Part shown: piece by piece, positions 43,816 through 44,624 of the stretch | How the letters are laid out: every line of letters starts with the position of its first letter | How positions within the stretch are numbered: position 1 is the stretch's first letter | Source: Candidatus Versatilivorator sp. | GTDB taxonomy: Bacteria; Acidobacteriota; Terriglobia; Versatilivoradales; Versatilivoraceae | Assembly (NCBI GenBank): GCA_965207735.1 | Contig: OZ242296.1 | Location: forward strand, 1,152,001 to 1,216,000 | DNA: 64,000 nt | Direction: 5' to 3' | Notes under the pieces: generated by a model | Seen by the model: only the letters and a program-made list of their open reading frames with translations | The model's database searches: none | Told to the model about the DNA's origin: nothing | Program-made: the position numbers and the translations under genes

Positions 43816-44343
43816 TCAGGTCTCCAACTCCACGTTCCAGTACAGGTAGTCGCGCCAACTGTCGGGAGCATTCCTGAAAACCAGGTTCAGGTTTAGGCTG
43901 GGCACCCACTCAGGTTCCGCCGGCCTCTTGATCAAGCGCATGCCGGCCTCTTCCGGAGTCCTTCCTCCCTTTCTGCGATTGCAAGCGATGCAGGCAGTCA
44001 CGATGTTGTCCCAACTCTTGCCCCCACCGCGCGACACCGGTACCACATGGTCGAAGGTCAGTTCATCCCCGCGACGGGCGCCGCCGCAGTACTGACAGCG
44101 GTGTCTGTCCCGCGCGTAGATGTTGGCTCTGGAGAACTTGATCATGCGGCTCCTCTTGACCTTGACGTAGCGCAGCAGCCGCAGCACCGACGGCAGCTTG
44201 ACGGAAAAGGTCACGCTGCGAATCTCACGGGAGTACTCCTCGACCACCTCCACCTTGCCGGCGAACAGCAGGGTGATGGCTCTTTGCCAACTGATGACGC
44301 GAAGCGGCTCGAAGGACGAGTTCAGCAGCAGCGTGCTTTCCAT
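43816..44343 (-). CDS. Small HNH endonuclease (175 aa)
   Basis: RDRHRCQYCG, TFDHVVPVSRGG, NIVTACIACNRRKG; N-terminus LLLNSSFEPL...RAITLL..GKVEVV. Confidence 0.92.
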   Translation of the reverse strand: MESTLLLNSSFEPLRVISWQRAITLLFAGKVEVVEEYSREIRSVTFSVKLPSVLRLLRYVKVKRSRMIKFSRANIYARDRHRCQYCGGARRGDELTFDHVVPVSRGGGKSWDNIVTACIACNRRKGGRTPEEAGMRLIKRPAEPEWVPSLNLNLVFRNAPDSWRDYLYWNVELET

Positions 44344-44409
44344 GGGTTGGCTACTCCAGCATGGCTGCCATGGCCGGGGCTCGGCGCCGGCCCGCACCCG
44401 GTTGAAGGT

Positions 44410-44451
44410 AAAAAAAAACCGACACGACTTGAAAAATCACAAGCGGCCGGC
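44410..44451 (-). terminator. Intrinsic terminator after the ncRNA candidate
   Basis: Minus-strand hairpin GCCGGC-CG-CUUG...CAAG-U-CG-U-GUCGGU followed by a U-run (A9 at 44410-44418 on +). Confidence 0.65.
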
Positions 44452-44591
44452 CAGGACGACTCCCGATAGCTGATCAGCTTCGACCGCCGGGTATCCAAAC
44501 ATCCTTGTGGTTGGTCAGGAACTCCGTAAGAAAACGTCGATCGATCAAGAATCTCATGAGTGTTTTCCCTGATGAGACGCCAGCCATCCTG
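44452..44591 (-). ncRNA. Unclassified structured RNA candidate (~140-nt core)
   Basis: 5'/3' closing stem CAGGAUGGCU/AGUCGUCCUG plus internal helices; G-U pairs form on the minus strand only; begins at the predicted TSS. Confidence 0.6.
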
Positions 44592-44596
44592 TCTGC

Positions 44597-44624
44597 ATTA
44601 TCTATAGGAGGGGGGTTTTGTCAA
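44597..44624 (-). promoter_or_regulatory. Sigma70-type promoter for the ncRNA/HNH unit
   Basis: Minus strand TTGACA-16 bp-GATAAT. Confidence 0.65.

Follow-up and report, generated by a model that had tools for sequence, protein, structure and literature searches.

SecM, TnaC, and MifM are ribosome arrest peptides, and SgrS/SgrT and RNAIII/hld are dual-function small RNAs (sRNAs) that encode small peptides. Leaders of the trpL/hisL type and the upstream open reading frame (uORF) of ilvB-II share a short translated open reading frame (ORF) with a Shine-Dalgarno (SD)-like run, followed by an intrinsic terminator before the gene; in Corynebacterium, the ilvB-II motif was a non-coding RNA (ncRNA) candidate that was later shown to be a uORF attenuator (PMC10272879). 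PepNL, a recent arrest peptide, stalls at a UGA stop codon (PMC11890864), and IshB is an insertion sequence-borne protein of ~180 amino acids (aa) with PLMP and HNH domains (PMC11610941 and PMC13284715). Here we describe the leader of a small HNH nuclease gene (HNH) on the minus strand of a 64,000-nucleotide (nt) stretch of Candidatus Versatilivorator sp. (contig OZ242296.1, positions 1,152,001 to 1,216,000), which we call the window and to which all positions refer unless stated otherwise. A sequence-only reading had taken this leader for a structured ncRNA, possibly a guide or a scaffold. We find that the locus is not a structured ncRNA; instead, its transcript carries a conserved small ORF (sORF). 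The order of elements resembles that of trpL/hisL-type and ilvB-II leaders, and we regard as evenly balanced the proposal that the locus is a leader-peptide attenuator, in which translation of the sORF would set terminator read-through into HNH, possibly via a nascent-chain or rare-codon pause.

To compare leaders, we gathered the regions upstream of HNH from 30 loci of related genomes. The same promoter, conserved core, and terminator recurred in 21 of the 30, and all 21 contain an in-frame ORF of 22–27 codons, as do all 24 copies later recovered by a profile search. We applied a coding test to an ungapped block of 17 codons from 20 unique sequences. Entropy summed by codon position was 8.8, 9.8, and 18.7, and across all pairs there were 741 synonymous codon differences in frame versus 80 and 159 in the other frames. 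Arg and Leu positions switch between codon families (CGA/AGA, CGT/AGG, and CTG/TTG); for the Val codon, all four synonyms occur. Every copy has a start codon (23 ATG and 1 GTG); 21 of the 24 carry a strict SD-like 4-mer at -16 to -3, and the other 3 have a GGG or GAG run. These comparisons indicate that the conserved block is a protein-coding sORF under selection at the aa level, a property that the sequence-only reading had missed.

The encoded peptides share the family motif [GT]-[NKS]-x-[KR]-D-V-W-[IL], with M1, D19, V20, and W21 invariant. Conservation is limited to the 8 residues that end at codon 22. The 14 residues at the N-terminus show no relation between some genera (MNSVHPSQIPKIAW vs MRFLIDRRFLTVYL), though their number is constant. 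No transmembrane character was predicted. Searches of Pfam and NCBIfam at E ≤ 10 returned no family for 18 peptides, and 4 tested peptides were absent from a collection of ~15 billion proteins; on these two grounds, we count the sORF as unannotated. We also considered a Lys-Trp cross-linked precursor of a ribosomally synthesized and post-translationally modified peptide. This candidate was dropped: one genus has Arg in place of Lys, and no maturase lies nearby.

The peptide profile found a single copy in 24 of 31 genomes of the family, distributed over 7 of its 11 genera. The genera without a hit are g2, g7, g8, and g9, and one g6 genome also gave none; not all of these genomes are complete. 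We then searched a sample of 151 genomes of the class, which takes in one unpublished genome (G118) as a negative. Strong matches (E ≤ 6e-8) came from 18 of 21 family genomes, the window's own counted, and from 0 of 130 others. Weak matches alone (E 0.003–0.09) were seen in three genomes outside the family (G037, G117, and G118) and three within it (G014, G020, and G066), and G142 has a second weak match; the weak matches are partial, and four of them lie inside long open frames. A further 300 genomes of the phylum gave no match. As far as these searches go, the peptides form a new family confined to a single acidobacterial family.

Linkage to HNH is complete among the 24 copies. Each lies directly upstream of HNH on the same strand, with its D19 codon 129–224 nt before the HNH start, and each is preceded by a promoter that matches 10–11 of 12 consensus positions with a 16-nt spacer. 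A consensus scan, which non-consensus promoters could escape, found no promoter-like site between terminator and HNH in any of the 24. The discrete promoter-to-terminator unit linked to HNH that had been described from the window alone is borne out, a terminator being present in all copies examined. We read this layout (promoter, translated uORF, intrinsic terminator, and a gene without a promoter-like site of its own) as attenuator-like. Loci without the sORF have either a TTGACAA-type promoter directly before HNH (L023–L025, L071, L073, L077, and others) or a same-strand tRNA gene in that place (L017, L067, L069, and L119), which fits a sORF-terminator module lying inside the HNH leader. Further downstream, the gene order is looser. 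A GNAT acetyltransferase gene follows HNH only in some genera, with no match in L016, L017, L018, L021, and L022, and a convergent CarD gene is present in 23 of 26 family-level loci and is absent from L024, L025, and all four distant class loci. Given this patchy GNAT and incomplete CarD conservation, the constant pair is the sORF and HNH.

Within the sORF, one position stands out. The motif closes with an Ile/Leu codon that is codon 22 in all 24 copies, with the start 21 codons (63 nt) before it; it reads ATA in 5 genera and TTA in 2, without exception among the 24. In long ORFs of the genome, ATA accounts for 7.4% of Ile codons and TTA for 0.7% of Leu codons; the HNH genes of the same 24 loci use ATA for 13 of 241 Ile and TTA for 10 of 388 Leu. 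The terminator stem has its base 38–46 nt beyond codon 22 (41–46 nt in six of the seven genera), and the tail after codon 22 consists of 0, 2, or 5 unconserved codons. Other spacings vary between genera: 22–40 nt from stop to stem, 39–87 nt for the 5' untranslated region (UTR), and 44–139 nt from terminator to HNH, counted from the start of the U-run. An abrupt end of conservation at a rare codon, a constant preceding length, a free tail, and a fixed terminator spacing would be expected if a pause at codon 21/22 were read out at the terminator. Programmed frameshifting at AUA-UGA was considered and dropped, as in most genera the stop does not directly follow codon 22.

We suggest that ribosomes carrying a ..[KR]DVW nascent chain would pause or become arrested on the rare codon 22, and that their occupancy there would alter terminator efficiency and with it the expression of HNH, as well as of GNAT in genomes that have it. 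Occupancy at codon 22 would affect the terminator because the distances are fixed, at 63 nt from the start and ~44 nt to the stem. Candidate signals are how well AUA/UUA-decoding tRNAs are supplied, or else a ligand or a drug that targets the nascent chain. A more specific version is a 22-codon ribosome-arrest leader whose ..[KR]DVW chain stalls at an obligatory AUA/UUA, placed at a set distance from the intrinsic terminator, and gates HNH without a classical antiterminator, sensing either decoding capacity (lysidine-tRNA-Ile2 or tRNA-Leu-UAA) or a ribosome-bound small molecule; we put this version forward as speculative and, in our estimate, doubtful. A literature search on AUA codons and leader-peptide attenuation showed nothing relevant among the titles and opening lines of abstracts listed, and none of the papers searched deals with Versatilivorator.

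The nearest known kinds are uORF or leader-peptide attenuators and ribosome arrest peptides. Compared with trpL/hisL-type leaders and ilvB-II, the sORF has no run of regulatory codons for an operon-related aa, and neither an antiterminator nor an anti-antiterminator was detected; what is conserved here is a C-terminal peptide motif and one rare codon. With the arrest peptides, the locus shares a short leader ORF in which conservation is concentrated nearest the (putative) stall point, including a Trp, while the N-terminus and the part after the stall point vary. There is, however, no sequence similarity to SecM, TnaC, MifM, or PepNL, and stalling is only putative here. Downstream, this locus has an intrinsic terminator in place of an SD-sequestering hairpin or a Rho site. 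In PepNL the stall is at a UGA stop codon (PMC11890864), whereas here 0–5 codons separate the motif from the stop. If the leader-peptide attenuator is real, a peptide family of unusually rigid geometry (codon 22, rare codon, and 44 nt to the terminator) joins the few known nascent-chain or rare-codon sensors, and there would be a first regulatory handle on a small HNH protein that is 59–66% identical in several other phyla.

Several observations weigh against attenuation. First, we found no antiterminator. The best duplexes of the terminator's 5' arm with upstream RNA lie at inconsistent places (z from -3.09 to +1.62), and just 1 of 12 fell below z -2. Second, in equilibrium partition-function folding, 10 of 15 naked RNAs form the terminator at P ≥ 0.7, and no consistent change in it followed when a ribosome footprint was masked over the start, codon 21/22, or the stop; the switch search used thermodynamic models only, not kinetic ones. 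Third, with 22–40 nt between stop and stem, the stem is out of reach of a terminating ribosome, and we dropped direct occlusion of the terminator by such a ribosome for this reason. Fourth, family members without the sORF keep an HNH that is 72–79% identical, and in genome G001 (L026/L043) HNH is interrupted, as two overlapping pieces (residues 1–134 and 118–175) with an in-frame TGA, while sORF, promoter, and terminator are intact. Fifth, since all 24 copies belong to a single family (7 genera), they are not independent, although neighboring distances and third codon positions have clearly diverged despite this kinship. Lastly, of 9 public sequencing runs, the 3 recorded as RNA matched 0.05–0.06 of sampled words and give no evidence either way on expression; they covered only the tRNA-Val gene and short fragments of diverged HNH from relatives, with nothing over 44106–44683.

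The strong promoter, the SD-like run, and the 9-U terminator would equally suit an abundant stand-alone product. We therefore weighed a microprotein, i.e., a 22–27-aa peptide that acts in trans, perhaps on the HNH protein, with a terminator that serves just to end its transcript and basal read-through supplying HNH. Selection at the aa level agrees with this alternative, as do the missing antiterminator and a terminator that is predicted to form whatever the ribosome position, and the intact sORF beside the interrupted HNH of G001 mildly favors it. What it does not account for is the geometry: a function of the peptide alone leaves the rare codon 22, the 63-nt start distance, and the 38–46-nt terminator distance unexplained. 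Moreover, the conserved part is 8 residues only, N-termini are unrelated between genera, the peptide has neither transmembrane character nor a known family, and none of the 24 sORF copies occurs away from an HNH leader. We consider a microprotein a realistic, if unlikely, prospect.

The transcription unit itself bears out much of what had been proposed from the sequence. The minus-strand TTGACA-16-GATAAT promoter matches 11 of 12 consensus positions, and the interval 43700–44900 contains 2 promoter-like sites vs 0.3 ± 0.5 in shuffles; the second site serves the divergent tRNA-Val gene (44692–44768). As read from the sequence, the transcript from promoter to terminator would be ~180 nt. The proposed hairpin with a U-run is present (nine U); RNAalifold returns it for every alignment and does so for no other helix. 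In the family alignment (21 sequences from seven genera), it is the sole consensus helix, with compensatory changes at 7 of its 14 pairs. A simple terminator scan called no site at 44450–44410, because two bulges leave the perfect inner stem too short. The HNH gene, placed ~65 nt past the U-run in the earlier description, starts 66 nt after it, and the GNAT gene is next.

The claim of a structured RNA fared differently. At gathering thresholds, the only Rfam matches in the whole window were to tRNA and to a group II intron. At E ≤ 10 in 44300–44700, there was no match to HEARO (RF02033), and the sole match was snoR25 on the other strand (E 4.8). 6S RNA (RF00013) had no match at the locus, and we dropped a 6S identity, which had also been raised, since the 6S RNA of this genome lies elsewhere (G000:C1:30943-31119, 72 bits). 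The minimum free energy was -61.2 kcal/mol vs -55.7 ± 4.0 in shuffles (z -1.38); 17 of the 200 shuffles fold as stably. The consensus fold of a genus alignment of 14 sequences had a covariation term of only -0.82. The six helices named in the sequence-only reading can be drawn in the window's sequence, and yet they do not exceed chance: on the genus alignment, 67.6% of their cells pair (59.6% for the 10-bp closing stem, 61.2% for the GUCUCAU/AUGAGAU hairpin, and 41.1% for AGCU/AGCU). With no structure besides the terminator conserved upstream of homologs (an outcome that the sequence-only reading had itself named as refuting it), no Rfam match, and a core that is coding, the idea of a guide or scaffold ncRNA is not supported. 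What looked like a structured ncRNA beside an HNH nuclease is an unannotated sORF missed by gene callers, which calls for caution in searches for OMEGA-like RNAs. We see the main value of this analysis in that correction and in a testable sORF regulator before a widespread nuclease.

One helix, CUUGAU/AUCGRG (alignment A1 columns 49–54 with 132–137), is better kept. Within the genus, 94% of its cells pair, and two pairs are changed on both sides. It would join sORF codons 3–5 to a segment ten nt past the stop (window ~44549–44544 with 44467–44462); visual inspection of one other genus did not show it. Such a long-range helix, along with the layout of promoter, leader, terminator, and gene, is what could be cited for an RNA-only riboswitch-like attenuator, in which a ligand-binding leader fold controls the terminator. 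Against this stand the family-wide consensus, which is the terminator helix only, the genus covariation term of -0.82, and the lack of an Rfam match; in addition, variation in the conserved core falls on third codon positions, opposite to the pattern expected of an aptamer. No conserved riboswitch aptamer fold was found in Rfam or in the genus and family alignments, and we judge this alternative very improbable. The earlier suggestion of an attenuator survives in its layout, in a changed, peptide-based form.

At the foot of the terminator, the stem base CCGRC/GYCGG and a CUGA(A)A just 5' of it (window 44419–44460) keep their sequence across genera amid an adjacent spacer that cannot be aligned; the upper stem covaries, unlike its sequence-conserved base. 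This conservation, together with a discrete transcript and a long U tail, would be compatible with a dual-function sRNA, in which the 180-nt transcript encodes the peptide and also base-pairs or binds a protein via CUGA(A)ACCGRC and the terminator base. SgrS/SgrT and RNAIII/hld likewise are transcripts with their own promoter and terminator that carry a small ORF, the one here being ~180 nt; this element differs in being fixed in cis upstream of one gene and in that no base-pairing target was found. A GC-rich stem base is expected of any efficient terminator, and no structure besides the terminator is conserved. We rate an sRNA role of this kind as improbable.

The HNH protein had been called IshB-like. 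This holds for its size and for its HNH domain, which is of the Cas9/IscB type: sequence matches in the PDB include TbaIscB, 4h9d, and several Cas9 chains, and residues 63–145 of a predicted structure superpose on a Cas9 HNH domain (Z 9.8, root-mean-square deviation 2.5, and 82 residues aligned). The matches found lie in that domain only. The NCBIfam IscB model matches residues 71–133 only, at profile positions 183–243 (51 bits vs a cut-off of 175), and an 18-homolog profile aligns with IscB chains of the PDB over residues 72–165 only, inside the HNH region. The N-terminal 70 residues, for which a resemblance to the PLMP domain of IscB had been proposed, gave no sequence match to IscB, and the predicted structure has a low confidence score there (pLDDT 33–71), so that the PLMP resemblance stays putative. 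The ESM Atlas returned generic HNH clusters only.

A mobile context and an associated RNA, the other halves of the IshB comparison, did not hold. One full-length HNH copy per genome is found in 40 of 41 related genomes, its convergent CarD neighbor is conserved, and identity is 59–66% in metagenome-assembled genomes (MAGs) that bear the labels Vicinamibacterales, Nitrospira, Desulfobacterota, and Nitrospinota. Among records with a name, 'Candidatus Versatilivorator' and 'Versatilivoraceae' (Acidobacteriota) come closest. Being single-copy, widespread, and this similar across phyla, HNH is not an insertion-sequence protein. Homologs across the whole collection were estimated at ~4800 stretches, of which the best 80 loci were compared. 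The sORF is present in 5 of these, all among the seven closest relatives (75–94% identical; two labelled Versatilivor-), and absent from the other 75; the 14 inspected have a short leader, a tRNA gene, or a gene directly upstream.

These results bear on the possibility that a structured guide, scaffold, or antitoxin ncRNA forms a ribonucleoprotein with an IshB-like HNH, analogous to the omega RNA of IscB. Like IshB and the IscB/IsrB omega RNA systems, the locus has a protein of ~180-aa size preceded by a transcribed element, and the HNH domain of this protein most resembles those of IscB and Cas9. Unlike them, it shows neither a HEARO match nor a conserved RNA fold nor a transposon context, and the conserved part of its upstream element is coding. 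The element is missing from 75 of the best 80 HNH loci, the HNH gene is single-copy and widespread rather than mobile, and no IscB above the family cut-off was found in the genome. We regard a ribonucleoprotein of this sort as extremely improbable.

Table 1. Features of the HNH leader and the genes it precedes (positions in the window)
Feature	Position	Strand	Description
Sigma-70-type promoter	44597..44624	-	-35 TTGACA 44624-44619, 16-nt spacer, -10 GATAAT 44602-44597; 11/12 consensus positions
Transcription start site (predicted)	near 44590	-	downstream of GATAAT
5' UTR of sORF	44558..44590	-	SD-like AGGGA at 44570-44566
sORF	44474..44557	-	27 codons + TGA (44476-44474), ATG at 44557; MRFLIDRRFLTEFLTNHKDVWIPGGRS; unannotated
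C-terminal motif, codons 15-22	44492..44515	-	TNHKDVWI; codon 22 = ATA at 44494-44492
Spacer, sORF stop to terminator stem	44451..44473	-	
Intrinsic terminator	44410..44450	-	13-bp stem with two bulges (44450-44419) + 9-U run (44418-44410)
Spacer, terminator to HNH start	44344..44409	-	66 nt; without promoter-like site
HNH nuclease gene, 175 aa	43816..44343	-	Pfam HNH_5 1.9e-14, HNH 3.4e-14
GNAT acetyltransferase gene	43104..43727	-	Acetyltransf_3 8.1e-24; downstream of HNH

Around these features (Table 1), a CarD-like gene converges on the HNH-GNAT side, and the tRNA-Val gene of the window is adjacent but divergent. An HNH-tRNA neighborhood recurs in other genomes: the same-strand tRNA upstream of HNH is a tRNA-Val in L017, L067, and L069 (genus g8), and L119, which also has one, is a MAG labelled Deltaproteobacteria. 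In L027–L030, which belong to other families of the class, the HNH homolog is 38–44% identical and, as judged by eye, directly follows a gene whose 3' end is like that of a ComF-type phosphoribosyltransferase. A second, unrelated ORF with an HNH domain lies at G000:C1:1136512-1136661, ~15 kb before the start of the window. The group II intron is at 59934–60776 on the minus strand of the window and comprises matches to D1-D4-4 (60633–60776, 80.8 bits) and Intron_gpII (59934–60077, 41.2 bits).

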